Shown: positions 6,500 to 51,393 of the stretch, piece after piece
Numbering within the stretch: position 1 is the first letter of the stretch
Layout: every line of letters begins with the position of its first letter
From: Naegleria gruberi
Lineage: Eukaryota
Length of the DNA: 51,393 nucleotides
Direction: 5' to 3' (one strand)
Assembly (NCBI GenBank): GCA_000004985.1
Contig: GG738939.1
Position numbers and translations under genes: made by a program
Notes under the pieces: generated by a model
What the model saw: the letters and a program-made list of their open reading frames with translations, nothing else
Told to the model about the DNA's origin: nothing
The model's database searches: none

Positions 6500-7075
6500 T
6501 CATGAATTTCTGCATATCCTCCTTGATGAGATTGAGGCTCCCTTCAATTGTTTGATCTCTTCTGTATTAATTTTTGTAAAGGTAGTGGAGGATAAACTTG
6601 TGCAATCTTGTGTAATTTGTAACTCGTCTCCAAGTGCTAGATCACAACTAGAATCATAGATCACATACATTGTTTTAAAATTTTCTGGTTTGGTAACAAT
6701 GGAATGTAATTGCACTTTACGACTGGCAAGGTACTTGTCAACTACCACAAATTGAGAGTCTTTCTTGAGTTGTTCTGGTAAACTGTTTTGAAGAGCTGAC
6801 TTGTTCTCAGTTGTTTGGGAATGATTAATATTCAAATCAGAGTCTTTCTTGAGTTTGTTTGTAAGAGATGACTCTGACTTGTTCTCTGCACGGAAAGGAT
6901 GTTTCCTTCCTTTACTTTTCTTTTTTAAAACTTGGAAACCTTTAGAATCATCATCTGATGTTATGAAATCTTCATCAGTAGAAGGAGGAGCAACATTTTC
7001 TTGCTTGTGAGAAGAAGTGGATTCTATTTCTTGATCGTTATCGCTTGTGAGTAGGTTGAAACTGTTGAAAGACAT
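6500..7075 (-). CDS. Hypothetical protein, 191 aa, Ser/Asp/Lys-rich and low-complexity, with no recognisable domain
   Basis: Genuine ATG at 7075..7073 (revcomp ATGTCTTTCAAC) and TGA stop at 6502..6500. Complete ORF in visible sequence. Divergent from the gene at 7244 with a 168-bp spacer. Confidence 0.5.
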   Translation of the reverse strand: MSFNSFNLLTSDNDQEIESTSSHKQENVAPPSTDEDFITSDDDSKGFQVLKKKSKGRKHPFRAENKSESSLTNKLKKDSDLNINHSQTTENKSALQNSLPEQLKKDSQFVVVDKYLASRKVQLHSIVTKPENFKTMYVIYDSSCDLALGDELQITQDCTSLSSTTFTKINTEEIKQLKGASISSRRICRNS

Positions 7076-7243
7076 TCGAAACTATTTTGTTAATTGTGTG
7101 TAAAGATGTTGTTGTTGTATTTTTTTGTAACAAGTACTTAAAAAGAAAGTGAAAATTCATGATTATTTATTATCATCCTCGATGAAACAAATTCCTACTT
7201 GTTGAATTAAGGCAAGGGTATTTGCAAAAATACAAATAAAAAA

Positions 7244-7465
7244 ATGTCCAAACATGTTTCCTCAAGCAACAGCACTAAGGTACCAAGAACTCAAGAAATA
7301 AAAAGAGAAAAGAACAAAGAATCCGACGATGAGGAAATCAAAATTGAAGAAAAGCTTCAACAACAGGAATACCAATTGTTGTCATCATCCAATACATTAA
7401 ATAGCAAAATGAGAAGAGAAGGCTCTGTGATGGTTTATGAAAGTTTTTACACATCAGAAAATAAT
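7244..7465 (+). CDS. 5' end of a protein-coding gene (N-terminal 74 aa: MSKHVSSSNSTKVPRTQEIKREKNKESDDEEIKIEE...), continuing into the masked block
   Basis: ATG at 7244 in an A-rich context (aaaaaaaATGtcc). The open frame runs to the mask edge at 7465. The product is charged and low-complexity, with no recognisable domain in the visible part. Confidence 0.4.
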
Positions 7466-30854: not shown

Positions 30855-33019
30855 GGTATCTACGTTGGCAGCAATGAATCCGAAATCCTTTCTATTGGTG
30901 AATTTAGATATCGAAGGAGCTTATGACTCTGTTGAAGTTTCTGTTATTGAATTAGCTCTAAAACATTGCAAATTTCCAATTAATTTAATTCAATTTATTA
31001 TTAATTCTTACAAAGAACACACTCTACAACTTGAAATCAATAACCACTTGTCCGAACCAATTACAAAATCCAGGGGAATCCCACAAGGTTGTCCATTATC
31101 ACCCCTGATTTATGATTGTATAACACAATTAATTATTGACAAAAGTATAGATGTTTGGAAATTACCAAAAGATCCTTGTAATCTTAATGCAAACGAAATA
31201 GGTATCCTTGGTTTTGCAGATGATATGTATCTTATTGCTGACACATCTGATATTAATACCGATTATAACGAAAGATTAAATGAATTAGATAGATGGGTAA
31301 CTGATCTTGCGTTAAAAATCAACCCTTCTAAATCAGTTGCAACAATACTGACTGAAAATGAATTGGATATAACCCCAAAAATTAATAATGTGAAAATTCC
31401 AATTCAGAAAAATATCAGAGTATTAGGTCATTATCCTTGGGAAGACCAACTTGTACAAGAAGATATTGAAAAAAGAATTTCCCTGTTTGAACTTTCCCTA
31501 AAATATCTTCCAATTAGATCATTAGAAATAAGAAATTTTAGAAAAGTAATCCAAGCTAAAGTATTGAGCCTATTCACACATATTACTCGTAGTAATGTTA
31601 TTTCAACCAAATATTGTGATAGAATTAATATTGCAATTAGACAAGCAATAAGAAGAAGAGGTAACTTACATTCAGCTACATCTACAGATTGGTTTCACTT
31701 ACCACTAGATCAAGGAGGTCTTAATATCCCTAAAATTGATGAATTTATTGAAAGACTACACATTAAGACCATTATGCAATTGAGAAATCAAAGAAATACC
31801 CTTGTCAGAAAAGCGTTTAACTGGGGAATTGATAATATTTCAAATTATAATTCAATATTCCATCAAATGAATCAAAGTTTGAAGCATTTTGACTTAACAT
31901 TTAATCAAAACTCAATAGAACCTTTAAGACCTTCAATTCTACAAGGTCAAAACTTTGAAATTTATACTGATGGATCGAAAATGGATGAAAATTCGACAGG
32001 ATTTGGTATCTACTTTCATAAAGGGGTAATTGAAGGAAATGAACAATTAAGCTTTAATATCGATGGAAGATACTCTCATAATGTAGCTGAATTGACTGCA
32101 ATTCTTATGGCTTCTAAATTATTACCTAATAATTCAAAAGCTACTATATTTACAGACAGCAAAATATCTATTGATATTCTAAATCCAAGATATGATGGGA
32201 AATTTTCCATTTTTAAAGATGAATTTTATAGAACAATATTTGATAAGAATTTGAAAATTAAATTGGAAAAGGTAAAAGGACATGTTGATCCTAATAATAT
32301 AATCGTTGATGAATTAGCCAAAAAGGGTTCGAAACAATATAATATTTCCATTGATATTAGAAAGCTTCTTCCTAATGCCATGTATTTAGAAAATAATGGA
32401 ACCATTATATTTGATCTACAGAATTATTTGAAAGGTATTCAAAGAGATAGGAGAGCTACCATTGCTAGAGATAAATCCAACCTAATTATAACCAAGGGAT
32501 GGTCCTCAGCAAATATCAAATACCTAAATTCTCATTTAGAACCTTACACCAAATTCTGTATCTGGAGAAACATGACAAATAATCATATTAGACAATACAA
32601 ACCCGTAAGCTGCTCGCACTGTGGAAGAATAGTTGAATTAGAACATTATATTTATTACTGTCCTGAAATGAGTGAAAAGCGAAACTACTTCTTGAATAAG
32701 TTCTATGAAATAACAAAATATAGAGCAATATTACATGATAGAAATGAATTTAGGTTTTCAAACAGATGGAAAGGATTCTTGATTAATCATAGAGGATTAT
32801 TAGATGAGAACAATCAAGATGAAATTAGAAGAAAATATCCATCAATTATTAGAAACTGGGTGGAAATTCAATCTTTACTGTCGTTACTTGTTGGTAAAGC
32901 ACATAAGAGATATTATCGTGATTTTCTTAAAACAAGAAAGAAAAACAAGAAGAAAACCAAAGAATAATCTATTTCGATTTCTAAAAAGATCCAATGGGTC
33001 TTTAATAAAGTTCAAAATA
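30855..33019 (+). mobile_element. Non-LTR (LINE-like) retrotransposon, copy A, 3' portion only; the 5' part is masked
   Basis: ORF2 C-terminal part with RT motifs (LVNLDIEGAYDSV, FADDMYLIA), an RNase H domain (FEIYTDGSK...AELTAIL...FTDSK...GHVDPNNIIVDELAKKG) and a CCHC knuckle (CSHCGRIVELEHYIYYCPE). 30855-31290 is 100% identical to 39566-40001 of copy B. A-rich 3' terminus ...gttcaaaataa. Confidence 0.9.
30856..32967 (+). CDS. LINE ORF2 C-terminal fragment (reverse transcriptase, RNase H, CCHC zinc knuckle); TAA stop at 32965-32967
   Basis: Frame continuous from the mask edge to the TAA. YxDD-type FADD motif, RNase H D/E/D/H residues, C-x2-C-x9-H-x4-C. The M at 30865 in the ORF track is a TTG codon (Leu), not a start. 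Confidence 0.9.
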   Translation, partial: VSTLAAMNPKSFLLVNLDIEGAYDSVEVSVIELALKHCKFPINLIQFIINSYKEHTLQLEINNHLSEPITKSRGIPQGCPLSPLIYDCITQLIIDKSIDVWKLPKDPCNLNANEIGILGFADDMYLIADTSDINTDYNERLNELDRWVTDLALKINPSKSVATILTENELDITPKINNVKIPIQKNIRVLGHYPWEDQLVQEDIEKRISLFELSLKYLPIRSLEIRNFRKVIQAKVLSLFTHITRSNVISTKYCDRINIAIRQAIRRRGNLHSATSTDWFHLPLDQGGLNIPKIDEFIERLHIKTIMQLRNQRNTLVRKAFNWGIDNISNYNSIFHQMNQSLKHFDLTFNQNSIEPLRPSILQGQNFEIYTDGSKMDENSTGFGIYFHKGVIEGNEQLSFNIDGRYSHNVAELTAILMASKLLPNNSKATIFTDSKISIDILNPRYDGKFSIFKDEFYRTIFDKNLKIKLEKVKGHVDPNNIIVDELAKKGSKQYNISIDIRKLLPNAMYLENNGTIIFDLQNYLKGIQRDRRATIARDKSNLIITKGWSSANIKYLNSHLEPYTKFCIWRNMTNNHIRQYKPVSCSHCGRIVELEHYIYYCPEMSEKRNYFLNKFYEITKYRAILHDRNEFRFSNRWKGFLINHRGLLDENNQDEIRRKYPSIIRNWVEIQSLLSLLVGKAHKRYYRDFLKTRKKNKKKTKE

Positions 33020-33036
33020 ATTTTTTTTTATTTGTG
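33020..33036 (+). repeat. 17-nt junction motif aTTTTTTTTTATTTGTG at the 3' boundary of LINE copy A, identical to the motif at the 5' boundary of copy B
   Basis: Exact 17/17 match to 36536..36552. Flanking sequence diverges immediately on both sides. The minus-strand reading is CACAAATAAAAAAAAAt. Confidence 0.8.
33027..33032 (-). promoter_or_regulatory. Candidate AATAAA polyadenylation signal for the minus-strand sterol desaturase gene, lying inside the LINE junction motif
   Basis: Plus-strand tttatt at 33027-33032 reads AATAAA on the minus strand, about 96 nt downstream of the TAA at 33130..33128. Confidence 0.35.
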
Positions 33037-33127
33037 GAATTGAACTCCGAAATAGTACAACTCCGGATTGAACTATAAAGTTCCTTATTTGTCAAGTGTT
33101 TAGTATTGAACACTGATGCTTACAAGG

Positions 33128-33968
33128 TTATTCTTGATGAATTTTATTCGATTCTGCTAGTTTCTTCTTTTGTTGTTTGAGTTTCCACTCAAAGAATCCA
33201 CCACAAGTTCCACACCAAATATCCCACCACATGAAATTCGATGAAAATACTCCACTACATCTACGATGATGAAAATCATGAAAATCAGCACCTCCAATTA
33301 AGTTTGGCGCCAAATTATTCGGAGAAAATGGGAAATCAAAGCCCGAATGAGTTTCACAAGCTGCCAATTGTCTAAGGTTGACAAAGATTAAGAGAGTAAG
33401 GAAGTGTGGACGGAGGAGAAGAGGTCCTAGAAAGGTGGCGAATCCAAGTATTAAAATTTCTAAGGGATGGGCGAAACTAGTGGAAAGTATAGTTGGAGAT
33501 TCGAATTCGTGATGGATTTTGTGGATGACGTGGTAGGCCCATGGTGTGTGAAGCCACCTATGGAACCAGTAGTGAGCTGTGTCTTCCATGAAGAAACAGA
33601 AAGCTAATTGAAGGAGAAGAACTTTCCAATTTGGGATATTCGAAACTTCGAGACTAAAGTAGTCAATTTGAGTAAGAAAGTGAAAAGCAACTGCATACAT
33701 TGGAAGAATCACCAAAAAGTAAATAAATAACAAATAGAATGTTGCCTTAACAATTTTCATTCCACTATTTTTCCTTTTCTGAAATAGTTTCGTCAAGGTT
33801 TCCAATAAAAATTTATATACTTACTGGTTGAATCTTATATTTCCTCAGAAAATCAAAGTCGCACCACTCTACCAACCACATCAATCCACTAGGAATGAAA
33901 TAATTCAAAAACAAAATGACAAATGGCAAGACAATTGTCACCATCGTGAGTGAATAATTCTCCAACAT
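33128..33968 (-). CDS. Fatty acid hydroxylase / sterol desaturase superfamily protein (ERG25/MSMO1-like C-4 methylsterol oxidase type). Two exons, join(33968..33825, 33778..33128), 264 aa
   Basis: Three histidine boxes (HRWLH, HKIHH, HDFHH) and N-terminal TM helices. Exon 1 starts at ATG 33968 and has 48 codons. A 46-nt intron (33824..33779, GTAAGT...TTTCAG) is phase 0/0 and removes an in-frame TAA. Exon 2 runs to TAA 33130..33128. The M at 33805 in the ORF track is a TTG codon inside the intron. Confidence 0.75.
33779..33824 (-). other. Spliceosomal intron, 46 nt, GTAAGT...TTTCAG
   Basis: The donor GT at 33824/33823 directly follows codon 48 (CCA). The acceptor AG at 33780/33779 precedes in-frame AAA AGG. 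Without splicing the frame hits TAA after 3 codons. Confidence 0.6.
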
Positions 33969-35940
33969 GAAATCCACAATTTCACCATTCCACCATCAAA
34001 GAATATTCAATTCTGATAAGTTATCATCTGGATAATCTGTTGATATATTAGATTCATNNNNNNNNNNNNNNNNNNNNNNNNNNNNNNNNNNNNNNNNNNN
34101 NNNNNNNNNNNNNNNNNNNNNNNNNNNNNNNNNNNNNNNNNNNNNNNNNNNNNNNNNNNNNNNNNNNNNNNNNNNNNNNNNNNNNNNNNNNNNNNNNNNN
34201 NNNNNNNNNNNNNNNNNNNNNNNNNNNNNNNNNNNNNNNNNNNNNNNNNNNNNNNNNNNNNNNNNNNNNNNNNNNNNNNNNNNNNNNNNNNNNNNNNNNN
34301 NNNNNNNNNNNNNNNNNNNNNNNNNNNNNNNNNNNNNNNNNNNNNNNNNNNNNNNNNNNNNNNNNNNNNNNNNNNNNNNNNNNNNNNNNNNNNNNNNNNN
34401 NNNNNNNNNNNNNNNNNNNNNNNNNNNNNNNNNNNNNNNNNNNNNNNNNNNNNNNNNNNNNNNNNNNNNNNNNNNNNNNNNNNNNNNNNNNNNNNNNNNN
34501 NNNNNNNNNNNNNNNNNNNNNNNNNNNNNNNNNNNNNNNNNNNNNNNNNNNNNNNNNNNNNNNNNNNNNNNNNNNNNNNNNNNNNNNNNNNNNNNNNNNN
34601 NNNNNNNNNNNNNNNNNNNNNNNNNNNNNNNNNNNNNNNNNNNNNNNNNNNNNNNNNNNNNNNNNNNNNNNNNNNNNNNNNNNNNNNNNNNNNNNNNNNN
34701 NNNNNNNNNNNNNNNNNNNNNNNNNNNNNNNNNNNNNNNNNNNNNNNNNNNNNNNNNNNNNNNNNNNNNNNNNNNNNNNNNNNNNNNNNNNNNNNNNNNN
34801 NNNNNNNNNNNNNNNNNNNNNNNNNNNNNNNNNNNNNNNNNNNNNNNNNNNNNNNNNNNNNNNNNNNNNNNNNNNNNNNNNNNNNNNNNNNNNNNNNNNN
34901 NNNNNNNNNNNNNNNNNNNNNNNNNNNNNNNNNNNNNNNNNNNNNNNNNNNNNNNNNNNNNNNNNNNNNNNNNNNNNNNNNNNNNNNNNNNNNNNNNNNN
35001 NNNNNNNNNNNNNNNNNNNNNNNNNNNNNNNNNNNNNNNNNNNNNNNNNNNNNNNNNNNNNNNNNNNNNNNNNNNNNNNNNNNNNNNNNNNNNNNNNNNN
35101 NNNNNNNNNNNNNNNNNNNNNNNNNNNNNNNNNNNNNNNNNNNNNNNNNNNNNNNNNNNNNNNNNNNNNNNNNNNNNNNNNNNNNNNNNNNNNNNNNNNN
35201 NNNNNNNNNNNNNNNNNNNNNNNNNNNNNNNNNNNNNNNNNNNNNNNNNNNNNNNNNNNNNNNNNNNNNNNNNNNNNNNNNNNNNNNNNNNNNNNNNNNN
35301 NNNNNNNNNNNNNNNNNNNNNNNNNNNNNNNNNNNNNNNNNNNNNNNNNNNNNNNNNNNNNNNNNNNNNNNNNNNNNNNNNNNNNNNNNNNNNNNNNNNN
35401 NNNNNNNNNNNNNNNNNNNNNNNNNNNNNNNNNNNNNNNNNNNNNNNNNNNNNNNNNNNNNNNNNNNNNNNNNNNNNNNNNNNNNNNNNNNNNNNNNNNN
35501 NNNNNNNNNNNNNNNNNNNNNNNNNNNNNNNNNNNNNNNNNNNNNNNNNNNNNNNNNNNNNNNNNNNNNNNNNNNNNNNNNNNNNNNNNNNNNNNNNNNN
35601 NNNNNNNNNNNNNNNNNNNNNNNNNNNNNNNNNNNNNNNNNNNNNNNNNNNNNNNNNNNNNNNNNNNNNNNNNNNNNNNNNNNNNNNNNNNNNNNNNNNN
35701 NNNNNNNNNNNNNNNNNNNNNNNNNNNNNNNNNNNNNNNNNNNNNNNNNNNNNNNNNNNNNNNNNNNNNNNNNNNNNNNNNNNNNNNNNNNNNNNNNNNN
35801 NNNNNNNNNNNNNNNNNNNNNNNNNNNNNNNNNNNNNNNNNNNNNNNNNNNNNNNNNNNNNNNNNNNNNNNNNNNNNNNNNNNNNNNNNNNNNNNNNNNN
35901 NNNNNNNNNNNNNNNNNNNNNNNNNNNNNNNNNNNNNNNN

Positions 35941-36537
35941 AACTATTCCAATAATGTTACTTATACTGCAATTCACAAAATTTAAATATTTTGTGCTAAT
36001 TCTGACTGACCCATTATCAATTATTAAGTTTGACATTTTCACACTTGGCATTCCTTCCATAATGAATAGTTTCGTATTTCTAATTATTAAATATTCAAGT
36101 TCCAAATTAATATTCTTTGAAAATTGAATAAATTCATCACACTCAATTACTGATAGAGAATCTGTTTCGAATGATTTCATTCTAAATGTTTGAAAACTAT
36201 TAAATATTTGATAATCCTGCAAATTATATGAACATCGCTTCATTTCTCCCATCACCATCACATCCAATATTCGAAACTCATCTATTTTCACATTTTCCAC
36301 AATAAAATTCACAATTTGCATAAAATCACCACATGGATCATCGGGTGAGAAACAGGCTTTGGAAGTTGTATTCGAAATTCCATCATCATTCAAGTAGAAA
36401 AACAATTCATTATCATCTATTAGATTGTGTGATGAAATTAAATTCGAATTTTCGGAAGAACACAAGCAAACACCAATCATCGATGATGATAGCATCAAAA
36501 AGGCGAGAAGCAGGGTTATATGTTGTGGTGATGACAT
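35941..36537 (-). CDS. N-terminal part of a secreted leucine-rich protein (signal peptide MSSPQHITLLLAFLMLSSSMIGVCLC); continues into the masked block
   Basis: ATG 36537..36535 in context aaaaaaaaATGTCATCA. Hydrophobic signal peptide. Downstream Leu/Ile/Asn-rich repeat-like segments (ELEYLIIRNTKLFIMEG..NLIIDNGSVRIS..LNFVNCSISNI). The frame is open to the mask edge. The track shows the same frame reaching a stop at 34054, but that stretch is masked. Confidence 0.55.
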
Positions 36538-36552
36538 TTTTTTTTATTTGTG
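36536..36552 (+). repeat. 17-nt junction motif aTTTTTTTTTATTTGTG immediately 5' of LINE copy B
   Basis: Identical to 33020..33036. The first T (36537) is the complement of the A of the minus-strand ATG of the secreted leucine-rich gene. Confidence 0.8.
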
Positions 36553-36565
36553 CGAAGTAAAAAAA

Positions 36566-37948
36566 ATGTCTAAACATCATCCTCCGTGGATTACAAAGAA
36601 CATAACAAAAGCAGGCCCCAGCTCTGCCAGAAATCTAAAGTCCACTAAAAGTCACACTAAGGAATTAATTTCCGTACCTAAAAATAATTTAAATTTTAAT
36701 TTTAAAATGTCTTATGCTGATGTTGTTAAACAAATTCCGAGATCGGAATCAAAATTGAAATCGGAATCAAAACAAATCGTGATTGCCAACCGAACTATTA
36801 ATATCAAGTCGGTTAATTTAAATTCAAGACAAAAAAAATTCAGTAGAAATATTAAGATGTCAGATAATAAGCAAATCGACTACGAAACTTGTATTTCAGT
36901 ATTTGTCCAACAACCAAATGAAGCATTTGAAGATTTAATTGTTAAGGAGGTTGGTCACTTATGTAATAGAATTTATGTTCCAGAATTGAAACCAAAACTT
37001 GTTCAATTAATTATAGATAGCAAAGAAAATTATCAAGAAGCAATAAGAATTCTCAATAATATGGTTACAAAAACTAATACGAAATTCCTTCCTTCCCCTA
37101 TGAACTTTACTCCAACTAATCATACCGTCAAATATCATTCAGAAAAATTAGATTTTATTAATCACCAAATTTCTAATATTATTGATGCAGTATGGCATAG
37201 TAAGATTAATATCTCACAAATGAATCTCAGTTTTGATAGAACTACTCAAATCTACAAGTTAAGAGTTGCTCTTATTAACTCAAATGGAAAAGATGAGCTA
37301 TTGAAAAATGGTTTTCAAGAATATAAGTCAATGGATCAAATTCTTAAAGAATGTCAATTTGAAGCCACCTGCAATTTCCCTACATCATTCCAAGAAAAGG
37401 ATATCATTGAGGCAGTTAAAGAAATTAGTAAATTGGCTGACGTTCAATTTCGTCGCAGTAACCTTACTATTACCAAGTTGAAAGCAACCTATCTCCATAA
37501 TAGAGAATATTATGCAGTTAATTACAAACTTCAAAACGAAGAGGAATTGAAAGCATTTATATCAAAGGCGATTAGATGTAAGGGATCTAAAGATAATTCC
37601 AAGAAAATCTTTAAAAGATTTAAATCTACTGCTGAATACTTGAAGAAGAAATTACAATCAAATAATACTGATAACCATGAAAATTTAACCAGTAGTTCTA
37701 TCATTATTGATATTAATAAGAGACTTACTAGAATGGAAGAGAAAATTGAAACTCAAGTTGCAAAGACTTCTAATCATGAACTAAAATTACAAAATTTTGA
37801 TGAAAGAATGAACAAGTTCTTAGAAAGTTTGGAACAATTAAGATTTTTAACAATGAATTTCAAGAATATTGGTAATGCAAAGGAAGGTATGAACGACGAA
37901 GGCTATGAGGATTACAATCCTCATGTAAATCACTCTCGTTATGATTGA
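36566..37948 (+). CDS. LINE ORF1 protein, about 460 aa, Lys/Asn-rich with a predicted coiled-coil C-terminal region
   Basis: First in-frame ATG at 36566 (aaaaaaATGTCTAAACATCAT), TGA at 37946-37948. No recognisable zinc knuckle. Heptad-like segment MEEKIETQVAKTSNHELKLQNFDERMNKFLESLEQL. Confidence 0.7.
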   Translation: MSKHHPPWITKNITKAGPSSARNLKSTKSHTKELISVPKNNLNFNFKMSYADVVKQIPRSESKLKSESKQIVIANRTINIKSVNLNSRQKKFSRNIKMSDNKQIDYETCISVFVQQPNEAFEDLIVKEVGHLCNRIYVPELKPKLVQLIIDSKENYQEAIRILNNMVTKTNTKFLPSPMNFTPTNHTVKYHSEKLDFINHQISNIIDAVWHSKINISQMNLSFDRTTQIYKLRVALINSNGKDELLKNGFQEYKSMDQILKECQFEATCNFPTSFQEKDIIEAVKEISKLADVQFRRSNLTITKLKATYLHNREYYAVNYKLQNEEELKAFISKAIRCKGSKDNSKKIFKRFKSTAEYLKKKLQSNNTDNHENLTSSSIIIDINKRLTRMEEKIETQVAKTSNHELKLQNFDERMNKFLESLEQLRFLTMNFKNIGNAKEGMNDEGYEDYNPHVNHSRYD

Positions 37949-40001
37949 TTTAAAATCTACTATCCGTGTGGGATGCTATAATGTAAATGGTCTAATTAGG
38001 ACAGGAAATTCTAAAGAAAAACTCATACAACCAATTAATGCAATGTGTAGATCTAATGGTATTCACATAATGTGTATAACAGAAACACATATCAATAATT
38101 ATGAATCTCAACAGAAATGTTATAATGAGTGTAATGGACATATTCTATTCAATTCCTTAATGAATACAAGAAAAGCTTGCAAGGGAACAGCAATTCTTCA
38201 TTTCTTAAATAACAAGAGAAAGAGATTTATTTCTAATCATAATATCATCAATGGTAAATTACAATGGTTTCGTTTCAAATCTAGAAACAAGATATTTAAT
38301 ATCATTGCGGGCTATTTATCAGGGAAAAAGGAAGAAGAAGATGATGATCAATTAGCTATGTCTCATATTATTGAAATTATGACTAAATTTAATGATGAAT
38401 ATTTTATTATAGCTGGTGATTTGAATATTGATAGTAATAACCCTATTTCCAAAAGAGATAAAGAATGGATGAATCTTCTAAAACAACTCAATATGTATGA
38501 AGACAAACAGCTTAGTCAAATATCATATAGAAGAAAACAGAAAGACAAGATCATTGAAACACACCCAGACCATATATTTGTATCAAATAATTTGAAAATA
38601 ATTGGAGGGAAAAGTCTACCATCTATAACTCACAATGATCATATACCTTTTTATATAGACATTCAATATGATTGCGATCCGACTTGGAGGGCATCTATTT
38701 CAAGGAAACATATAGAAACGTTATGTAGTACAATTAATCAAGAAACCTATTTATCATTTGATGAACTAGAACGGAATATTAAGAATAATTTTTTAAAGTA
38801 TTCATATAGGAATGATAAGCTTAATGTTAAATTCCTTTCGTCTAGAAAGCGAAAAGATATTAGAAGAATAGAATCAAAAATCAGAGAAATAATGGACAAA
38901 AAAGATCCAAAACAAGAACAGGAATTAATTACACTCCAAACAGAACTGAAAACTGTTTATAGAGAGGCTGCAAAAGAAATAAGAACAAATCTATTGGATC
39001 AATTTAATAGCCATAATTCTTCAGCAATGTACAGATTTGATAGACACCTTAAAGAAAAGACAATTAATTGGAATGAAATCTCATTTGATGAATCGACAGT
39101 TGTCAACTTCTTTCAGGATAAATTTACATCAAAAGTTGAAGATATTAATTTCATTCCAAGTAGGTCAACAATTAAGTATGGACCAAAAAGAATCAAATTT
39201 AAATTGGAAACTATCAAAAAAGCCCTTTTAAGAATGAGTTCTAATACTCCAGGAACAGATAATATTCCATTGTCTATAATAAGAGGTTTAAAAGATGAAC
39301 ATCTTCAACTCATTTGTGACAAATTTAATCAGTGCTTGGATAATGGTAATATTCCTTTGGAATGGAAAAATGGTTGGGTAAAATTAATTCCTAAACGAGA
39401 CATTATTTCTCTCAAAGATATTCGTCCGATTACTATCCTTCCAATTATGTATAGATTAATGTTTAATATTATTGCTTTTAAATTAAGGAAATGGGCTTCA
39501 GAGAATATAAATATACGTCAACAAGCATTTATACCAAAGAGGAATACCCTTAATCATGCAATATTGGTATCTACGTTGGCAGCAATGAATCCGAAATCCT
39601 TTCTATTGGTGAATTTAGATATCGAAGGAGCTTATGACTCTGTTGAAGTTTCTGTTATTGAATTAGCTCTAAAACATTGCAAATTTCCAATTAATTTAAT
39701 TCAATTTATTATTAATTCTTACAAAGAACACACTCTACAACTTGAAATCAATAACCACTTGTCCGAACCAATTACAAAATCCAGGGGAATCCCACAAGGT
39801 TGTCCATTATCACCCCTGATTTATGATTGTATAACACAATTAATTATTGACAAAAGTATAGATGTTTGGAAATTACCAAAAGATCCTTGTAATCTTAATG
39901 CAAACGAAATAGGTATCCTTGGTTTTGCAGATGATATGTATCTTATTGCTGACACATCTGATATTAATACCGATTATAACGAAAGATTAAATGAATTAGA
40001 T
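37941..40001 (+). CDS. LINE ORF2, N-terminal part: apurinic/apyrimidinic-type endonuclease domain and beginning of reverse transcriptase (partial; continues into the mask)
   Basis: ATG at 37941 lies within ATGATTGA and overlaps the ORF1 stop, in the +2 frame. Endonuclease motifs as above. RT motifs FIPKRNTLNHAI..LVNLDIEGAYDSV. Predicted full ORF2 is about 1245 aa, ending at 41678 by homology with copy A. Confidence 0.9.
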
Positions 40002-43000
40002 NNNNNNNNNNNNNNNNNNNNNNNNNNNNNNNNNNNNNNNNNNNNNNNNNNNNNNNNNNNNNNNNNNNNNNNNNNNNNNNNNNNNNNNNNNNNNNNNNNN
40101 NNNNNNNNNNNNNNNNNNNNNNNNNNNNNNNNNNNNNNNNNNNNNNNNNNNNNNNNNNNNNNNNNNNNNNNNNNNNNNNNNNNNNNNNNNNNNNNNNNNN
40201 NNNNNNNNNNNNNNNNNNNNNNNNNNNNNNNNNNNNNNNNNNNNNNNNNNNNNNNNNNNNNNNNNNNNNNNNNNNNNNNNNNNNNNNNNNNNNNNNNNNN
40301 NNNNNNNNNNNNNNNNNNNNNNNNNNNNNNNNNNNNNNNNNNNNNNNNNNNNNNNNNNNNNNNNNNNNNNNNNNNNNNNNNNNNNNNNNNNNNNNNNNNN
40401 NNNNNNNNNNNNNNNNNNNNNNNNNNNNNNNNNNNNNNNNNNNNNNNNNNNNNNNNNNNNNNNNNNNNNNNNNNNNNNNNNNNNNNNNNNNNNNNNNNNN
40501 NNNNNNNNNNNNNNNNNNNNNNNNNNNNNNNNNNNNNNNNNNNNNNNNNNNNNNNNNNNNNNNNNNNNNNNNNNNNNNNNNNNNNNNNNNNNNNNNNNNN
40601 NNNNNNNNNNNNNNNNNNNNNNNNNNNNNNNNNNNNNNNNNNNNNNNNNNNNNNNNNNNNNNNNNNNNNNNNNNNNNNNNNNNNNNNNNNNNNNNNNNNN
40701 NNNNNNNNNNNNNNNNNNNNNNNNNNNNNNNNNNNNNNNNNNNNNNNNNNNNNNNNNNNNNNNNNNNNNNNNNNNNNNNNNNNNNNNNNNNNNNNNNNNN
40801 NNNNNNNNNNNNNNNNNNNNNNNNNNNNNNNNNNNNNNNNNNNNNNNNNNNNNNNNNNNNNNNNNNNNNNNNNNNNNNNNNNNNNNNNNNNNNNNNNNNN
40901 NNNNNNNNNNNNNNNNNNNNNNNNNNNNNNNNNNNNNNNNNNNNNNNNNNNNNNNNNNNNNNNNNNNNNNNNNNNNNNNNNNNNNNNNNNNNNNNNNNNN
41001 NNNNNNNNNNNNNNNNNNNNNNNNNNNNNNNNNNNNNNNNNNNNNNNNNNNNNNNNNNNNNNNNNNNNNNNNNNNNNNNNNNNNNNNNNNNNNNNNNNNN
41101 NNNNNNNNNNNNNNNNNNNNNNNNNNNNNNNNNNNNNNNNNNNNNNNNNNNNNNNNNNNNNNNNNNNNNNNNNNNNNNNNNNNNNNNNNNNNNNNNNNNN
41201 NNNNNNNNNNNNNNNNNNNNNNNNNNNNNNNNNNNNNNNNNNNNNNNNNNNNNNNNNNNNNNNNNNNNNNNNNNNNNNNNNNNNNNNNNNNNNNNNNNNN
41301 NNNNNNNNNNNNNNNNNNNNNNNNNNNNNNNNNNNNNNNNNNNNNNNNNNNNNNNNNNNNNNNNNNNNNNNNNNNNNNNNNNNNNNNNNNNNNNNNNNNN
41401 NNNNNNNNNNNNNNNNNNNNNNNNNNNNNNNNNNNNNNNNNNNNNNNNNNNNNNNNNNNNNNNNNNNNNNNNNNNNNNNNNNNNNNNNNNNNNNNNNNNN
41501 NNNNNNNNNNNNNNNNNNNNNNNNNNNNNNNNNNNNNNNNNNNNNNNNNNNNNNNNNNNNNNNNNNNNNNNNNNNNNNNNNNNNNNNNNNNNNNNNNNNN
41601 NNNNNNNNNNNNNNNNNNNNNNNNNNNNNNNNNNNNNNNNNNNNNNNNNNNNNNNNNNNNNNNNNNNNNNNNNNNNNNNNNNNNNNNNNNNNNNNNNNNN
41701 NNNNNNNNNNNNNNNNNNNNNNNNNNNNNNNNNNNNNNNNNNNNNNNNNNNNNNNNNNNNNNNNNNNNNNNNNNNNNNNNNNNNNNNNNNNNNNNNNNNN
41801 NNNNNNNNNNNNNNNNNNNNNNNNNNNNNNNNNNNNNNNNNNNNNNNNNNNNNNNNNNNNNNNNNNNNNNNNNNNNNNNNNNNNNNNNNNNNNNNNNNNN
41901 NNNNNNNNNNNNNNNNNNNNNNNNNNNNNNNNNNNNNNNNNNNNNNNNNNNNNNNNNNNNNNNNNNNNNNNNNNNNNNNNNNNNNNNNNNNNNNNNNNNN
42001 NNNNNNNNNNNNNNNNNNNNNNNNNNNNNNNNNNNNNNNNNNNNNNNNNNNNNNNNNNNNNNNNNNNNNNNNNNNNNNNNNNNNNNNNNNNNNNNNNNNN
42101 NNNNNNNNNNNNNNNNNNNNNNNNNNNNNNNNNNNNNNNNNNNNNNNNNNNNNNNNNNNNNNNNNNNNNNNNNNNNNNNNNNNNNNNNNNNNNNNNNNNN
42201 NNNNNNNNNNNNNNNNNNNNNNNNNNNNNNNNNNNNNNNNNNNNNNNNNNNNNNNNNNNNNNNNNNNNNNNNNNNNNNNNNNNNNNNNNNNNNNNNNNNN
42301 NNNNNNNNNNNNNNNNNNNNNNNNNNNNNNNNNNNNNNNNNNNNNNNNNNNNNNNNNNNNNNNNNNNNNNNNNNNNNNNNNNNNNNNNNNNNNNNNNNNN
42401 NNNNNNNNNNNNNNNNNNNNNNNNNNNNNNNNNNNNNNNNNNNNNNNNNNNNNNNNNNNNNNNNNNNNNNNNNNNNNNNNNNNNNNNNNNNNNNNNNNNN
42501 NNNNNNNNNNNNNNNNNNNNNNNNNNNNNNNNNNNNNNNNNNNNNNNNNNNNNNNNNNNNNNNNNNNNNNNNNNNNNNNNNNNNNNNNNNNNNNNNNNNN
42601 NNNNNNNNNNNNNNNNNNNNNNNNNNNNNNNNNNNNNNNNNNNNNNNNNNNNNNNNNNNNNNNNNNNNNNNNNNNNNNNNNNNNNNNNNNNNNNNNNNNN
42701 NNNNNNNNNNNNNNNNNNNNNNNNNNNNNNNNNNNNNNNNNNNNNNNNNNNNNNNNNNNNNNNNNNNNNNNNNNNNNNNNNNNNNNNNNNNNNNNNNNNN
42801 NNNNNNNNNNNNNNNNNNNNNNNNNNNNNNNNNNNNNNNNNNNNNNNNNNNNNNNNNNNNNNNNNNNNNNNNNNNNNNNNNNNNNNNNNNNNNNNNNNNN
42901 NNNNNNNNNNNNNNNNNNNNNNNNNNNNNNNNNNNNNNNNNNNNNNNNNNNNNNNNNNNNNNNNNNNNNNNNNNNNNNNNNNNNNNNNNNNNNNNNNNNN

Positions 43001-43819
43001 NNNNNNNNNNNNNNNNNNNNNNNNNNNNNNNNNNNNNNNNNNNNNNNNNNNNNNNNNNNNNNNNNNNNNNNNNNNNNNNNNNNNNNNNNNNNNNNNNNNN
43101 NNNNNNNNNNNNNNNNNNNNNNNNNNNNNNNNNNNNNNNNNNNNNNNNNNNNNNNNNNNNNNNNNNNNNNNNNNNNNNNNNNNNNNNNNNNNNNNNNNNN
43201 NNNNNNNNNNNNNNNNNNNNNNNNNNNNNNNNNNNNNNNNNNNNNNNNNNNNNNNNNNNNNNNNNNNNNNNNNNNNNNNNNNNNNNNNNNNNNNNNNNNN
43301 NNNNNNNNNNNNNNNNNNNNNNNNNNNNNNNNNNNNNNNNNNNNNNNNNNNNNNNNNNNNNNNNNNNNNNNNNNNNNNNNNNNNNNNNNNNNNNNNNNNN
43401 NNNNNNNNNNNNNNNNNNNNNNNNNNNNNNNNNNNNNNNNNNNNNNNNNNNNNNNNNNNNNNNNNNNNNNNNNNNNNNNNNNNNNNNNNNNNNNNNNNNN
43501 NNNNNNNNNNNNNNNNNNNNNNNNNNNNNNNNNNNNNNNNNNNNNNNNNNNNNNNNNNNNNNNNNNNNNNNNNNNNNNNNNNNNNNNNNNNNNNNNNNNN
43601 NNNNNNNNNNNNNNNNNNNNNNNNNNNNNNNNNNNNNNNNNNNNNNNNNNNNNNNNNNNNNNNNNNNNNNNNNNNNNNNNNNNNNNNNNNNNNNNNNNNN
43701 NNNNNNNNNNNNNNNNNNNNNNNNNNNNNNNNNNNNNNNNNNNNNNNNNNNNNNNNNNNNNNNNNNNNNNNNNNNNNNNNNNNNNNNNNNNNNNNNNNNN
43801 NNNNNNNNNNNNTCATTAG

Positions 43820-44224
43820 TCAACTGCAAAATTAACTATTCTTAATATTAGTTGCAATCGAATTAATGATGAAGGAGCCAAATCACTTAGTCAATTGAAC
43901 CAATTAACAAACCTAAACATTAGACTAAACGAAATTGGAGATGAAGGCGCCAAATTTATTGGAAAAATGCAAAATCTAACTCTCCTCACCATTGATCACA
44001 ATCAAATTCAAACTCAGGGTGCAAAGTATCTCAGTAACTTGGTCAACTTGAAAACTTTATACATTCATGGAAATGAAAATATTGAAAGGGAAGGTTCCAA
44101 GGCAATTAGTGAAATGAAAGAGTTGAGAAGTGTAAAACTCGATCATATTCATATATTGTATGCAAATGTTAGATTTGGAATGAATGTTTCAGTTTCGTAT
44201 TACAACAAAAATAATTACATTTAA
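43820..44224 (+). CDS. Terminal exon of an RNI-type leucine-rich-repeat protein (24-aa repeats LxxLxLxxNxIGDEGAKxL). Upstream exons lie in the masked block
   Basis: Acceptor tcattAG|TCAACTGC at 43818/43819, with an in-frame TAG immediately upstream, so this is an exon start. Four or more tandem 24-residue LRRs. TAA at 44222-44224. AATAAA at 44228-44233. Confidence 0.65.
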   Translation, partial: STAKLTILNISCNRINDEGAKSLSQLNQLTNLNIRLNEIGDEGAKFIGKMQNLTLLTIDHNQIQTQGAKYLSNLVNLKTLYIHGNENIEREGSKAISEMKELRSVKLDHIHILYANVRFGMNVSVSYYNKNNYI

Positions 44225-44227
44225 TTG

Positions 44228-44233
44228 AATAAA
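44228..44233 (+). promoter_or_regulatory. AATAAA polyadenylation signal of the LRR gene
   Basis: gaATAAAc, 4 nt after the stop codon. Confidence 0.4.
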
Positions 44234-44335
44234 CAACAATTTCAATTTCTTACTCTGTTACAATTAAATATCAGTATGATATATATTTGAGTATAGGGGA
44301 AAAATTAATAGCATTGTAAAATATTAAATATATAT

Positions 44336-44797
44336 TTAGTCAACTTGTAACAATTTCAATAAATTCTCATAGTGCTCCATATCCCTTTCAATTCCATTAA
44401 TAATTTCCATCCACCACAATGAGGTTTCATCATATCCATACTCTTGCTCATGTTCTTCCCTCGATTTTTCACACTCTTTTCGATCCAATTCCAAATCTGA
44501 TAAAATCTTGAGAATTCCATCTTTCATTTCCTTCTTCATTTCTATCAAGTCAATAAATTGTTGTTGTGGTGAATTTGTATTTTCATCAAATTTCTTCTCC
44601 AAAATCTCCAGCATCATATTTGGAATTAAAAGACGATTGTAATATTCATTCCATAAATTTCTCCAAAAAATTCTGGAATTCATTACAATATTATGAGTTG
44701 ACCGATCGATTTGTAATATCGTTCCGAGGTGTTTTATGGAGAGAAAGTTGAAAATCTCTATGAGCACCTCTGGAGGCAAATCACTAAATGATGACAT
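44336..44797 (-). CDS. Small F-box protein, 153 aa
   Basis: ATG 44797..44795 (aaaaaaaaaATGTCATCA). N-terminal F-box LPPEVLIEIFNFLSIKHLGTIL. Acidic C-terminal half. Stop at 44338..44336. Single exon. Confidence 0.7.
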   Translation of the reverse strand: MSSFSDLPPEVLIEIFNFLSIKHLGTILQIDRSTHNIVMNSRIFWRNLWNEYYNRLLIPNMMLEILEKKFDENTNSPQQQFIDLIEMKKEMKDGILKILSDLELDRKECEKSREEHEQEYGYDETSLWWMEIINGIERDMEHYENLLKLLQVD

Positions 44798-44853
44798 TTT
44801 TTTTTTTGATTTAATTTAGATCAGGCAAAGTTCATCAGTGTTTGAATTTAATC

Positions 44854-44877
44854 TTTCAGTTTCGAATTACAACAAAA
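44854..44877 (+). pseudogene. Relic of the 3' end of a paralogous LRR gene: 24-nt segment matching 44187-44210 at 23/24, including the last codons and stop region
   Basis: tttcagtttcgAattacaacaaaa versus tttcagtttcgTattacaacaaaa. Encodes ..SVSNYNKI* versus ..SVSYYNKNNYI*. Lies in the spacer between the F-box start and the sphingomyelinase stop. Confidence 0.4.
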
Positions 44878-44927
44878 TTTAGGAAGAAACTGTATTTCAA
44901 AGAAACCTAGGTGTTATTTTAGTTTAT

Positions 44928-45919
44928 TTAGACACAATATGGATGTTTTCTAGCCATATTATAATTCAGCTCAGTTGTGATACCCAAATGATCACTCGGA
45001 GTTGGAGTTGAATCTCCAAATAATTGGAGTTTGAAGGAATTATTGGAATTCCATTCCAAAATTCTACTAAATTTATCAACCATGATATGATCCATTCCAG
45101 TATTTCTTTCTGGATCATCAGAACAATCGCCAATTTCCCAATTTAATCCATTCACACAGAAAGTTGCCTTATTTGGATCAATTGACTGATATCCATATCC
45201 AGCAAGTGTTTCATAACCTTCTGGTTGCGTCAATGGTCCACTATTCAAATCACCAACCAAGATATTAGGTCTCTTCATGATAACCATCCTAGAAAACTCT
45301 GGTTGATACATTACTGGCAAGTCAATCCCAAAATTAAAAGGAAAGTGTGACTCCATAATAAATAATCCATTGATACACATCTCTAATAATCCTCTACTCA
45401 ATAAAAATGAAGGATAGGAAGTGTAATTGGCACGTGAGATTGGTGTCTTACTCAGAACCATCAATCCATTGGAGCCGTCATAGAGAAATTCCTGACCTGT
45501 GTGTCCAGGAGTGTAACAATTGGCTATATTCTTATTCTCAACGACAGATGTCAGGACACAGGATATACATTTAAAGTTTCCATAGGCAGCTCGACTCAAA
45601 AATTCAGCACAAGGTCCCAAAGTTGTCCACGAAAGTGTCAAATTTTTTTCACGGACACAATGAAGGAAAGGAAGAGCGAATCTATGGAATGAATCATCCG
45701 TACAAGATGCTTCATTCACAACTTCCTTGTGTCCATGGAAGGAGTATGGATATGAGGATTTCAGCTCTTCAGAAATTAGGTGGGAATGAGATTGGAGCCA
45801 AACTTCTTGGAGAAAGACTACATCGAGGTCTTTTGGTATGGTTTCTATGATTTTCTTGACATTGACTGGTGTGCCAGGTACTAGAGCAGTATTAAAGGAA
45901 GCAATCTTTAAGTTATGTA
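44928..45919 (-). CDS. Neutral sphingomyelinase-like Mg-dependent phosphodiesterase (SMPD2/ISC1-type EEP fold). The N-terminal few codons are masked and there is no C-terminal transmembrane anchor
   Basis: The frame is open from the mask edge: ..HNLKIASFNTALVPG..DLDVVFLQEVW..YPYSFHGH.. through MDHIMVDKF and PSDHLGITTEL to TAA at 44930..44928. It aligns by eye motif-for-motif with human SMPD2 (LRIFNLNCWGIP / LLEEVWSEQ / RIDYVLYK / PLSDHEALMATL). The M in the ORF track at 45719 is GTG (Val). Confidence 0.8.
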
Positions 45920-49950: not shown

Positions 49951-50609
49951 TATCTACCCTCTTCTTATTGGAATAAAAACCAAAATCAATGTTAAAAGCA
50001 GCTTTTCCCAAAACGTCTATTCAACCAAGGTTGTGTTATGATATAACAGATCGACTCAGATCAGTAACTCATTGAGCTACGAAATTACTTACCCAATGTA
50101 AGATTCGAATATTCATTTACATCCAAAATCATAGATCCATTCTCTTTCAATCTCTCATTCCAAATTTCAAACAATAAATCACAAGACTTGTCAGCAACCT
50201 TACACACATACATTAAATTCTTTGGTGTGAAAGCTGCCGAACAAATCTTGTAATGTTTCTTCCATTTTTCAGTATTAGTAGCTGTCAAAATATTATCCTC
50301 TCCAAAGAAATTCACCACCTCATATCCTGGTTTCTCAAACAAATGACCCTTAGTAATGAAATATTCCTTCAACATTTTCGGATCACTAATAAAAACAAGT
50401 GGTGTGGTAGAAGTAGCAATACTCAAAGTTTGAGTTTCTGCATCTCCATACAACAAACAAGCCTTATCCAAATCCTCATCACTTGTTAGATAGAGATGAG
50501 TGGACAAGAAGGGAATTCTTATCGGAGAAAGTTCGAATACTTGCATCACCCCCGGAATGTGCTTAATTTTCGAGTGGATTTTATGGAGGGTGAATCGAAC
50601 AGTTTTCAT
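49951..50609 (-). CDS. Cytochrome P450, N-terminal region (CYP3-clan-like). Exon 1 50609..50093, intron 50092..50017, exon 2 50016..mask edge; continues into the mask
   Basis: ATG 50609..50607. Motifs IPG..PLVFISDPKMLKEYF..FGEDNILTATNTEKWKKHYKICSAAFTP (the W-x3-R/H-x7-F helix-C motif). Donor G|GTAAGT at 50093/50092 and acceptor aatAG|AC at 50018/50017 splice to ..EYSNLTLDVLGKAAFNIDFG.., the canonical TLDVIxxxAFG region. Reading through unspliced gives LTLGK*. Confidence 0.8.
50017..50092 (-). other. Spliceosomal intron, 76 nt, GTAAGT...AATAG, phase 1
   Basis: Splicing restores the conserved P450 sequence LTLDVLGKAAF. Unspliced read-through terminates at TAA 50087..50085. Confidence 0.65.
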
Positions 50610-50707
50610 AAAAAAGCATGAACCTAATTAAGGTTAGGAATTGTGAAATTTTCTATAAAAACAACTCAAAAAAACAATTTTTTCAAAATTTTCAAAAACA
50701 AAGCACA

Positions 50708-50998
50708 ATGACTCACAAATTCAAGAAAACTTATAACTCAAACCAAACAAGAAAATACGGCTATTATCACTGCACCGATTGTAACAGACATTGGGAAAGT
50801 GGGAATTCCTGGGAAGGTTTCACTCAACAATGTTCTCATTGCTTTCGACCAGTTTATGCCTACAAATTGGAGAGTTTAATTAGAAAAGATGAATTAGAAG
50901 AATTATTTGATGTGATTGATCGTTCAAAACCTCATCGTCAAGATTTATGTATGAAATGTCAAAAATTGGGATTTTATTGTAGGGAGAGTAAATATTAG
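50708..50998 (+). CDS. Small zinc-finger protein with a Zar1-like 3CxxC domain (97 aa from ATG 50708; an alternative upstream ATG at 50618 gives 126 aa)
   Basis: YGYYHCTDCNRHWESGNSWEGFTQQCSHCF...KPHRQDLCMKCQKLGFYC matches the Zar1/zf-3CxxC signature (YGYYHCKDC ... PHRQDLCGRCK). TAG at 50996-50998. AATAAA at 51021-51026. Confidence 0.6.
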   Translation: MTHKFKKTYNSNQTRKYGYYHCTDCNRHWESGNSWEGFTQQCSHCFRPVYAYKLESLIRKDELEELFDVIDRSKPHRQDLCMKCQKLGFYCRESKY

Positions 50999-51020
50999 AG
51001 AAAGTTTAATAAGGTTATTA

Positions 51021-51026
51021 AATAAA
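51021..51026 (+). promoter_or_regulatory. AATAAA polyadenylation signal downstream of the zf-3CxxC gene
   Basis: ttaAATAAAatg, 23 nt after the stop. Confidence 0.35.
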
Positions 51027-51240
51027 ATGCAAATCGTTTTGTAATTTTGTCACTTTCCATTTATAGAGTTTAATGATTTGTCATGGATCAACAATTTCAA
51101 TATCATTGTAAACTCTATGAAAGGTGAGTGTTGACCCCGCAAAATCACCTGATATCACTTGTTTTTGGCCAACAACACAGCGATATTGGTGACAGCTTTA
51201 AAAAATCATTCAAAAAAAAAACGACATCTGAAGGGCAAAC

Positions 51241-51393
51241 ATGCTGTTGAGTAACAGGTTGCATTATGCACTCTTGGTAGTGTTGGTATTATCCTCCCTC
51301 TTTGTGGTGTTGGCAGAACATGAACCTCTATCTGTCATTTCACAAAATCCTCCTTCGATGGCATTTGACAGCAATTTGAAATTGCCAAAAACA
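51241..51393 (+). CDS. 5' end of a gene encoding a protein with an N-terminal signal peptide (MLLSNRLHYALLVVLVLSSLFVVLA|EHEP...), partial at the window edge
   Basis: ATG 51241 (ggcaaacATGctg). 51 codons open to the window end. Hydrophobic core flanked by charged residues, with an AXA-like cleavage site. Confidence 0.45.
   Translation, partial: MLLSNRLHYALLVVLVLSSLFVVLAEHEPLSVISQNPPSMAFDSNLKLPKT

Follow-up and report, generated by a model that had tools for sequence, protein, structure and literature searches.

A young LINE near a Naegleria gruberi telomere: two identical copies at one gene-start insertion site, probably carried by a tandem duplication

A stretch of 51,393 nucleotides from Naegleria gruberi (contig GG738939.1 of assembly GCA_000004985.1; hereafter, the window) carries two copies of a long interspersed nuclear element (LINE) 27-42 kb from a telomere tract. 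We conclude that these copies probably go back to a single recent insertion of an autonomous LINE, which was later duplicated in tandem together with its neighbour genes in the subtelomere, and that the element is a member of a Naegleria/Willaertia-confined lineage rather than a telomere device. The unmasked part of the window consists of six stretches (1-1015, 6480-7465, 30855-34057, 35941-40001, 43813-45919, and 49951-51393), and the N-masked spans 7466-30854, 34058-35940, and 40002-43812 hide the 5' part of the copy closer to the telomere (copy A) and the 3' part of the other copy (copy B).

The visible 3' part of copy A (30855-33019, + strand) runs from the reverse transcriptase (RT) palm of open reading frame 2 (ORF2) through RNase H and a CCHC motif to the 3' untranslated region (UTR); its ORF2 stop codon ends at 32967, and its masked start would lie near 27842. 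The visible 5' part of copy B (36553-40001, + strand) comprises the 5'UTR, ORF1, and ORF2 with its apurinic/apyrimidinic endonuclease-type (APE) domain, linker, and RT to just past the FADD motif; its masked end is placed at about 41730, to be followed by a target-site duplication (TSD) at about 41731-41747. The two parts overlap at 30855-31290 and 39566-40001, where 436 of 436 bases are identical, as the preliminary description had stated. This overlap is the sole long repeat among the visible segments, and the offset between the copies is exactly 8,711 bp. Because 0 differences in 436 bp bound the divergence only below about 0.7% (95% upper bound, 0.68%), this identity is a weak clock. Copies of a related family in Naegleria fowleri that are 99.4-99.7% identical would often look identical over 436 bp as well.

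The junctions of the two copies imply that they share one insertion site. The 17-mer ATTTTTTTTTATTTGTG has exactly two occurrences in the window, as the 17-bp 3' TSD of copy A (33020-33036, + strand) and the 17-bp 5' TSD of copy B (36536-36552, + strand), both assigned by exact motif and by comparison with an empty site. The empty site is found on L002, a 2,575-bp ENA metagenome contig (ERZ929261) that was reached through a 99% identical hydroxylase protein and is 97-98% identical to the window flanks. Its positions 1-489 align to window 44299-43815 (98.4% identity), 1490-2506 to 34054-33035 (97.2%), and 2523-2575 to 36544-36492 (within the overall 97-98% match). Read in the orientation of the window, the first 53 nt of a host gene at the 5' flank of copy B (geneX) abut the sequence that follows the 3' end of copy A, and then come a fatty acid (FA) hydroxylase gene and, about 1 kb farther on, a leucine-rich repeat (LRR) gene. 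Thus, L002 is a LINE-free, precise empty site with a single copy of the target, which amounts to a presence/absence polymorphism, and the insertion site lies between the geneX start codon and the 3' end of the FA hydroxylase gene. Both visible copies accordingly sit at this one site. Since the 3' junction of copy A and the 5' junction of copy B are the two halves of one insertion site, the copies would lie in a tandem segmental duplication, and two telomere-directed transpositions become unnecessary.

The length of the masked gap after copy B agrees with this arrangement. Adding the remaining 1,729 bp of the LINE, the 17-bp TSD, and the junction-to-LRR distance of L002 predicts position 43763 for a point of the LRR match that is observed at 43815, a difference of 52 bp. 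The gap 40002-43812 thereby fits the rest of the LINE, the TSD, a second FA hydroxylase copy, and about 1 kb, within ~50 bp. The simplest layout suggested by these data is two tandem units of geneX-TSD-LINE-TSD-hydroxylase followed by the LRR gene (43815-44299, + strand), which would mark where single-copy sequence resumes to the right of the duplication. In L002, the hydroxylase is followed by the LRR gene without the branch expected for a duplicated hydroxylase, and this contig therefore probably represents a relative that lacks the duplication as well as the LINE. The LINE family is young, as indicated by the perfect 17-bp TSD, the open ORFs, and the empty site in a 97-98% identical relative. 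To this extent the very recent transposition proposed in the preliminary description holds; the identity of the copies, which share a site, is not evidence for two recent transpositions. The same description had named a segmental duplication with identical flanks as a finding that would refute its reading, and such a duplication is what the visible sequence appears to favour.

Several points weigh against a single insertion followed by duplication. The duplication is deduced from three things, namely that the copies share a site, that they are offset by a constant 8,711 bp, and that the gap has the expected length; the masks cover what lies 5' of copy A and 3' of copy B. Moreover, two separate insertions, made after the geneX-hydroxylase pair had been duplicated (a 3.5-kb unit), or one insertion spread by gene conversion, would fit the visible sequence equally well, because the lineage repeatedly uses C/ATTTTTT (the slash marks the junction) at gene starts, so that paralogous targets would give identical-looking junctions. 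Such a history would have required two hits on particular sites among thousands of candidate motifs (about one AAAAAATG per 4-6 kb in an N. fowleri sample), and the unbranched path from geneX through the hydroxylase to the LRR gene in L002 suggests that the duplication is as young as the insertion; we consider it unlikely. Equally, an assembly artefact, in which a single LINE locus was falsely duplicated by haplotype or repeat mis-joining in a long-read assembly, would typically give perfect identity and an exact tandem layout, subtelomeres are error-prone, and nothing in the visible sequence contradicts it. Positive evidence for such an error was not found, and subtelomeric segmental duplications are common, real features of genomes, which makes an artefact a quite improbable account. 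A transcript of copy B might instead have run past its weak terminal AATAAA into the hydroxylase region and have been retrotransposed a few kb away as copy A. Read-through is expected from a terminal polyadenylation signal and an absent poly(A) tail, and this 3' transduction would make the 3' junction of copy A replicate that of copy B exactly. It needs antisense gene sequence of 1 kb or more to have been transduced and to have landed no more than a few kb away from copy B, and the visible sequence contains no end of a transduced segment; the fit of the masked gap shows only that a hydroxylase copy follows copy B, which transduction and duplication both predict. We regard this route as very improbable.

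The remaining alternative, raised in the preliminary description, is that the copies are separate recent transpositions of a telomere-targeting or end-maintaining LINE family, oriented as in HeT-A/TART arrays. Both copies do lie within 42 kb of a real telomere tract (visible parts of copies A and B at 30.9-33.0 and 36.6-40.0 kb, respectively; whole inferred range, 27-42 kb), and both are on the + strand with their 5' ends facing the left-end (CCCAAA)n tract, exactly as first described. The chromosome end has ordinary short (TTTGGG)n repeats, and telomere repeats were found neither outside positions 1-432 of the visible window nor in any related locus. What flanks the LINE is, on one side, the start codon of a gene, with a 17-bp TSD, and, on the other, the 3' end of a gene; neither flank is telomeric repeat or chromosome terminus. 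Host genes (FA hydroxylase and geneX) separate the copies, so that there is no uninterrupted head-to-tail array, and one shared site amounts to one independent event. The hallmarks of telomere-specific LINEs (HeT-A/TART, SART/TRAS, and Giardia GilM/GilT), insertion into telomeric repeats and a gene-free array, are both absent. Because there is effectively one independent insertion, its orientation carries no statistical weight; it would follow from the orientation of geneX, as the LINE is antisense to the gene whose start codon it struck, and not from a telomere function.

The distribution of relatives was examined with five near-full-length N. fowleri copies, which were fetched with coordinates: L006 (VFQX01000016.1, 912.9 kb; ORF2 at 280.9-284.5 kb, + strand), L007 (VFQX01000006.1, 988.5 kb; 189.1-192.7 kb, - strand), L008 (VFQX01000027.1, 730.9 kb; 359.6-363.8 kb, + strand), L009 (VFQX01000066.1, 723.1 kb; 78.4-82.0 kb, - strand), and L010 (VFQX01000035.1, 717.5 kb; 505.6-509.1 kb, - strand). 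All five are chromosome-internal: their distances to contig ends range over 78-360 kb, both strands are represented, and their neighbours include enolase, condensin, kinesin, dynactin, and exosome genes. The nearer contig end is faced by the 3' end in two copies and by the 5' end in two others, and the fifth is central. This distribution comes from N. fowleri relatives and not from the N. gruberi genome itself, which counts among the points on the other side. Taken together, telomere targeting and a role in end maintenance are unsupported and are rejected here, and we consider a telomere-directed origin of the two copies extremely unlikely.

Joining the 5' part of copy B to the 3' part of copy A through the 436-bp overlap gives a composite element of 5,178 bp on the + strand, in which terminal repeats (long terminal repeats or terminal inverted repeats) were not found. 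The sense strand is 40% A. The 5'UTR has 13 nt (36553-36565) and the 3'UTR 52 nt (32968-33019), with AATAAA 12 nt before the element end; the 3' terminus reads ...CAAAATA and lacks a poly(A) tail. Potential 3'UTR hairpins were noted in the window element (AGAUCC-AAU-GGGUCU, 32985-33005) and in a sister element (GAAUCC-CAGUU-GGAUUC, L003 5608-5627); these folds are barely better than those of shuffled sequences (z -1.7 and -2.2), and we do not claim them as real structures. ORF1 is open (36566-37948, 460 amino acids), and the ORF2 start at 37941 sits inside the ORF1 stop, in the overlap ATGATTGA. ORF2 is uninterrupted over the joined visible parts (1,245 amino acids) and contains Exo_endo_phos (13-227), RVT_1 (483-734; E 3e-27), and RNase_H (908-1034; E 9e-13) domains followed by a CX2CX7HX4C motif (1128-1144). 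The catalytic motifs are in place: TETH, GDLN, and NDH, FADD (at 662), and TDGS/AEL/TDS/VDELA, with the DEDD residues of RNase_H. The domains and motifs thus bear out the earlier reading of ORF1 and ORF2 as intact where visible, with APE, RT, RNase H, and CCHC. ORF1 had no Pfam domain in four family members, even at E<=1; that of the window element has no CCHC pattern, and the single-sequence AlphaFold model of ORF1 has a mean confidence score (pLDDT 33) too low for use. By these features, the element reads as an autonomous, APE-type LINE with RNase H and a C-terminal CCHC motif.

A word-index protein search for relatives of this element returned a sole close cluster, from ENA metagenomes, at 45-47% identity, and the same search with ORF1 gave no match. 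An exhaustive profile search gave 27 representatives below E 1e-30, followed by a drop to generic LINE reverse transcriptases; those with a species name fall into two N. fowleri clusters, of 30 and 14 members spread over 18 contigs or more, plus two proteins of Willaertia magna. Annotated N. fowleri ORF2 fragments (assembly GCA_008403515.1) thus number at least 44. Identity of ORF2 to the window element is 49.6% for N. fowleri XP_044565688 (P0289), 45% for P0067 (ENA metagenomes), 34-37% for the second N. fowleri family, and 25-28% for Willaertia magna. The bit scores fall in the same order, from 1,045-1,130 for the three closest full-length Naegleria-type ORF2s to 615-641 for the second N. 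fowleri family, 184-212 for Willaertia, and ~125 for the next LINEs. ORF1 is 24-30% identical to its relatives (E-values 2e-31 to 8e-10). Two further candidates, Artemia franciscana KAK2723435 (P0138) and Cordylochernes P0149, were rejected as close relatives, since their high profile scores are the sum of three to six tandem RT fragments at ~24% identity. Relatives were not found in JGI metagenomes (searched with protein patterns and a 23-nt 3'UTR pattern), IMG/VR, or GTDB genomes. Database matches were all unnamed or "hypothetical protein", and none gives a LINE clade name.

The N. fowleri families (FDP41_012763 / XP_044565688 and FDP41_010350 / XP_044567998) and Willaertia magna KAL9646436 have a collinear, full-length ORF2 (APE-RT-RNase H-CCHC) like that of the window element, and these relatives also share with it a homologous ORF1, the stop-start overlap (kept in the lineage as ATGATTGA / ATGA), a 5'UTR of 12-13 nt, the lack of poly(A), and the C/ATTTTTT target at host starts. 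At least 50% divergence makes them separate families, in different host species. The locus that carries P0067 (L003) is a full-length sister element of the same plan, with ORF1 at 353-1900 and ORF2 at 1897-5586 including RNase H. Three further loci (L001, L004, and L005) are copies of this sister family, of which one is 99.1% identical, one 5'-truncated, and one internally deleted; L003, L004, and L005 show three distinct 3' flanks, and L001 lies wholly inside the element. Truncation at the 5' end was seen in the sister families in L004 (a 427-bp 3' fragment) and L010 (with a 13-bp TSD). In N. fowleri family A, the element ends in ...AATAAATATTTTTTCA (L007 9600-9640, L009 9530-9570, and L010 9320-9360), with a copy of the ATTTTTT target motif 2 nt from the 3' terminus that does not occur in the window or L003 families. 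In published Naegleria genome papers, LINEs appear only as a minor class in RepeatMasker output, at 0.25% for N. lovaniensis (PMC6125883), and one paper notes that few N. gruberi repeats could be classified (PMC12344493). Our literature searches found no account of Naegleria LINE families or of start-codon-targeting LINEs. From its sequence, we take the window element to be a new family of an essentially undescribed lineage, so far confined to Naegleria and Willaertia.

The insertion sites of this lineage have a common position on host genes. Exact boundaries were obtained from the four N. fowleri copies L007-L010, which are 97.5-99.7% identical. In the window, the 5' junction is C/ATTTTTTTTTATTTGTG (36535-36552), with a 17-bp TSD that starts with A followed by T9 and with geneX as the host gene. 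L007 reads ACC-ATTTTTTAGGAGGATG-AGCCC...LINE...TTCA-ATTTTTTAGGAGGATG, with a 16-bp TSD at the Img2 gene; L009 has the 16-bp TSD ATTTTTTTTGTTGTTC at a gene for a 205-amino-acid protein, and the 5'-truncated L010 has the 13-bp TSD ATTTTTTTCATGC at a gene for a 1,923-amino-acid protein. L008 retains the 5' junction ATTTTTTCGTCTTGTTG at the Trm112p gene and has lost its 3' end: the last 56 bp of the element are missing, and unrelated sequence stands instead of the 3' TSD (L008 9565-9700), which looks like a deletion or rearrangement after insertion. In the other N. fowleri family, L006 has C/ATTTTTTTT and a TSD of ~9 bp at a Nas2/PDZ gene, and the sister element L003 has C/ATTTTTTT and an 8-bp TSD. 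C/ATTTTTT is thus present at the 5' junctions of the window, L003, and L006-L010, and at all nine 3' junctions an A-ending LINE terminus without poly(A) passes straight into a T5-T9 run.

At every 5' junction with a gene call or ORF (6/6; the window and five N. fowleri loci), the CAT, read on the other strand, is the annotated start codon of a host gene. The target in host sense is AAAAAAAT/G, the LINE lies antisense on the start codon, and the TSD keeps the ATG and 8-16 nt of leader beside the host gene. The host ATG and the LINE ATG are divergent and 26-28 nt apart in four of the six loci (measured in the window, L007, L008, and L009), and natural divergent gene pairs in the same N. fowleri loci are ~500-590 bp apart; the short spacing raises the question of where either promoter lies. 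These ATG pairs are at window 36535-36568, L007 4379-4410, L008 4358-4390, and L009 4369-4402. The start context of the LINE ORF1 itself resembles the target motif (AAAAAAAATG at window 36558-36568; TTAAAAAATG in N. fowleri, L008 4379-4390), and elements could insert in each other's start codons, giving nested or antisense pairs.

We compared these junctions with the background frequency of the motif. The 78 kb of N. fowleri sequence that underlie the density given above contain 12 other AAAAAATG sites, 6 of which are annotated starts, and the AAAAAATG motif is simply the sequence that ordinarily surrounds starts in Naegleria. An endonuclease specific for this motif would hit starts about half the time, so that 6/6 gives P about 0.016. 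We conclude that a preference for C/ATTTTTT is well supported and that selectivity for start codons beyond the motif is suggestive. Two observations count against the latter: it is drawn from six junctions where about half of AAAAAATG sites are starts in any case, and the truncated sister copy L004 seems to have A/ATTTTTT without an adjacent ATG, a possible exception. In this copy, 24 nt between a possible short TSD (ATTTTTT) and the start of LINE homology are unexplained (L004 920-950). We advance tentatively, at somewhat less than even confidence, that the lineage has become adapted to the boundary between the A-rich leader and the ATG of protein-coding genes, with a nick inside the start codon (AAAAAAAT/G), a LINE that is always antisense and head-to-head with the host gene, and priming guided by read-through RNA. 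If so, given the 26-28 nt between the two ATGs and the 12-13-nt 5'UTR, LINE and host gene would share promoter function, or the LINE would supply the promoter, and a "start-codon-homing" LINE would be a target class undescribed for non-LTR elements.

The insertion probably proceeded by a single event of target-primed reverse transcription. Judging from the TSD positions, the endonuclease would nick the sense strand of the host gene at 5'-AAAAAAAAAT/G-3', between the T and G of ATG, and the APE domain is predicted to cut the AAAAAAATG strand at this point. Transcripts of an element with a terminal AATAAA would extend into the downstream TSD (AUUUUUU...), and the oligo(A)T 3'-OH primer probably annealed to the U-rich end of this read-through RNA, by analogy with R1Bm; priming of this kind would account for 3' junctions that are precise although no poly(A) tail is present. 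The observed TSD would result from a second nick at a distance of 8-17 bp (17 bp in the window), and RNase H would remove the template. ORF2 is probably translated by termination-reinitiation at the ATGA/ATGATTGA overlap, as in SART1. The block of geneX, LINE, and FA hydroxylase would then have been duplicated in tandem, leaving two identical LINEs in the same orientation. Both the priming model and the translational coupling are candidate mechanisms, and we put forward purely as a hypothesis that the 5' end of the LINE holds a promoter, internal or bidirectional.

Comparison with known LINE systems places these features in context. The best solved matches are the R2 and L1 reverse transcriptases for the RT domain and human L1 endonuclease (2v0r; E 1e-10) for the endonuclease, and the RNase H resembles bacterial RNase HI; the TRAS1 and R1Bm endonuclease structures did not match in the APE profile search of solved structures. 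Mammalian L1, whose endonuclease and ORF2p are the best collinear solved matches to the window ORF2, is alike in its two ORFs, an APE with a short A/T-rich nick consensus, target-primed reverse transcription with variable TSDs, and frequent 5' truncation. L1 differs in lacking RNase H and in its poly(A) end, TTTT/AA nick, and A-rich TSD starts, whereas the window LINE has RNase H, no poly(A), TSDs that start with A and a T-run, sites at start codons, and an ORF1 in which a Pfam search recognised no RNA recognition motif or C-terminal domain. The R1 group (R1Bm, SART1, and TRAS1) likewise combines an APE with a defined target. SART1 ORF2 is translated via overlapping stop and start codons, and R1Bm anneals read-through of its 3' flank to the target; the analogous features of the window LINE are the ATGATTGA overlap and the terminal AATAAA followed by the TSD. 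By contrast, the targets of the R1 group are multicopy repeats (28S rDNA and TTAGG telomere repeats), and that of the window LINE is a short motif at single-copy gene starts.

With Drosophila HeT-A/TART/TAHRE the window LINE shares only its orientation, in which the 5' end points to the chromosome end and the 3' end to the centromere. The Drosophila elements are attached head to tail at chromosome ends, lack TSDs, and take the place of telomerase repeats, whereas the chromosome of the window terminates in (TTTGGG)n, and its LINE has a TSD, host genes between the copies, and a position 27-42 kb from the end. Dictyostelium TRE5/TRE3 resemble the present lineage as APE-type LINEs of a compact, AT-rich protist genome whose insertions keep a constant position with respect to host genes. 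The sites of TREs are tens of bp away from RNA polymerase III (tRNA) genes and are reached through protein-protein targeting; the window LINE differs in using the ATG of protein-coding genes, where a sequence motif may explain the site. Finally, the clades that bear RNase H (I, LOA, Tad1, R1, and Ingi) have the same APE-RT-RNase H order and C-terminal CCHC, and the window ORF1 lacks the CCHC knuckles typical of I/LOA/Tad1-type ORF1.

The other features of the window are the telomere tract and host genes. The (CCCAAA)n tract (1-432, no strand assigned) lies outside the LINE, is oriented as for a left chromosome end, and includes a few variant units, CCGCGAA, CCCCCAAA, CCAAA, and CCAAAA, at 12-18, 206-212, 301-306, 344-349, and 404-409. 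According to PMC3622300, TTTGGG is the candidate telomere repeat of the heterolobosean N. gruberi, and short terminal repeats of this sequence are presumably of the kind that telomerase makes. The host gene at the 3' flank of copy A (33128-34057, - strand; 3' exon visible, within the duplicated unit) is FA hydroxylase/methylsterol monooxygenase-like, with a match to the FA_hydroxylase Pfam family at E 8e-25. Its product is 99% identical to P0027 (on L002), and its best named matches are in Naegleria lovaniensis (61%) and Acrasis kona (51%). GeneX (35941-36537, - strand) is visible as its N-terminal 199 amino acids, which begin with a signal-peptide-like sequence and had no match in a Pfam search. 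Its start codon occupies the complementary strand at 36535-36537 and has the beginning of the LINE target site inside it; the geneX ORF is kept where the end of L002 aligns. After the LINE insertion, geneX is left with just 15 nt of native leader, and under the duplication model both geneX copies would be in this state. An ORF at 44931-45719 (- strand, 263 amino acids) weakly resembles the endonuclease/exonuclease/phosphatase family (E 3.9e-4, which does not reach the Pfam cut-off); it was considered and set aside as unrelated to the LINE APE domain (BLASTP E 0.9) and is probably an ordinary host gene.

These results do away with an attractive but unsupported connection of a LINE to telomere maintenance in an organism of the telomerase type, and they indicate that a pair of identical copies close to a chromosome end can be one insertion carried by a subtelomeric duplication. 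The window element itself is best read as an ordinary young LINE in such a duplication. A start-codon-context target, the lack of a poly(A) tail, and a minimal 5'UTR set its lineage apart among LINEs, and Naegleria LINEs, which are almost undescribed, here show a reproducible insertion position on host start codons. If confirmed genome-wide, this position would define a new target class among site-selective LINEs. It would also prompt one to ask how host promoters function after such disruption, or whether the 5' end of the LINE acts as a promoter in both directions, and would make available for biochemistry a compact APE endonuclease whose nick site is defined.

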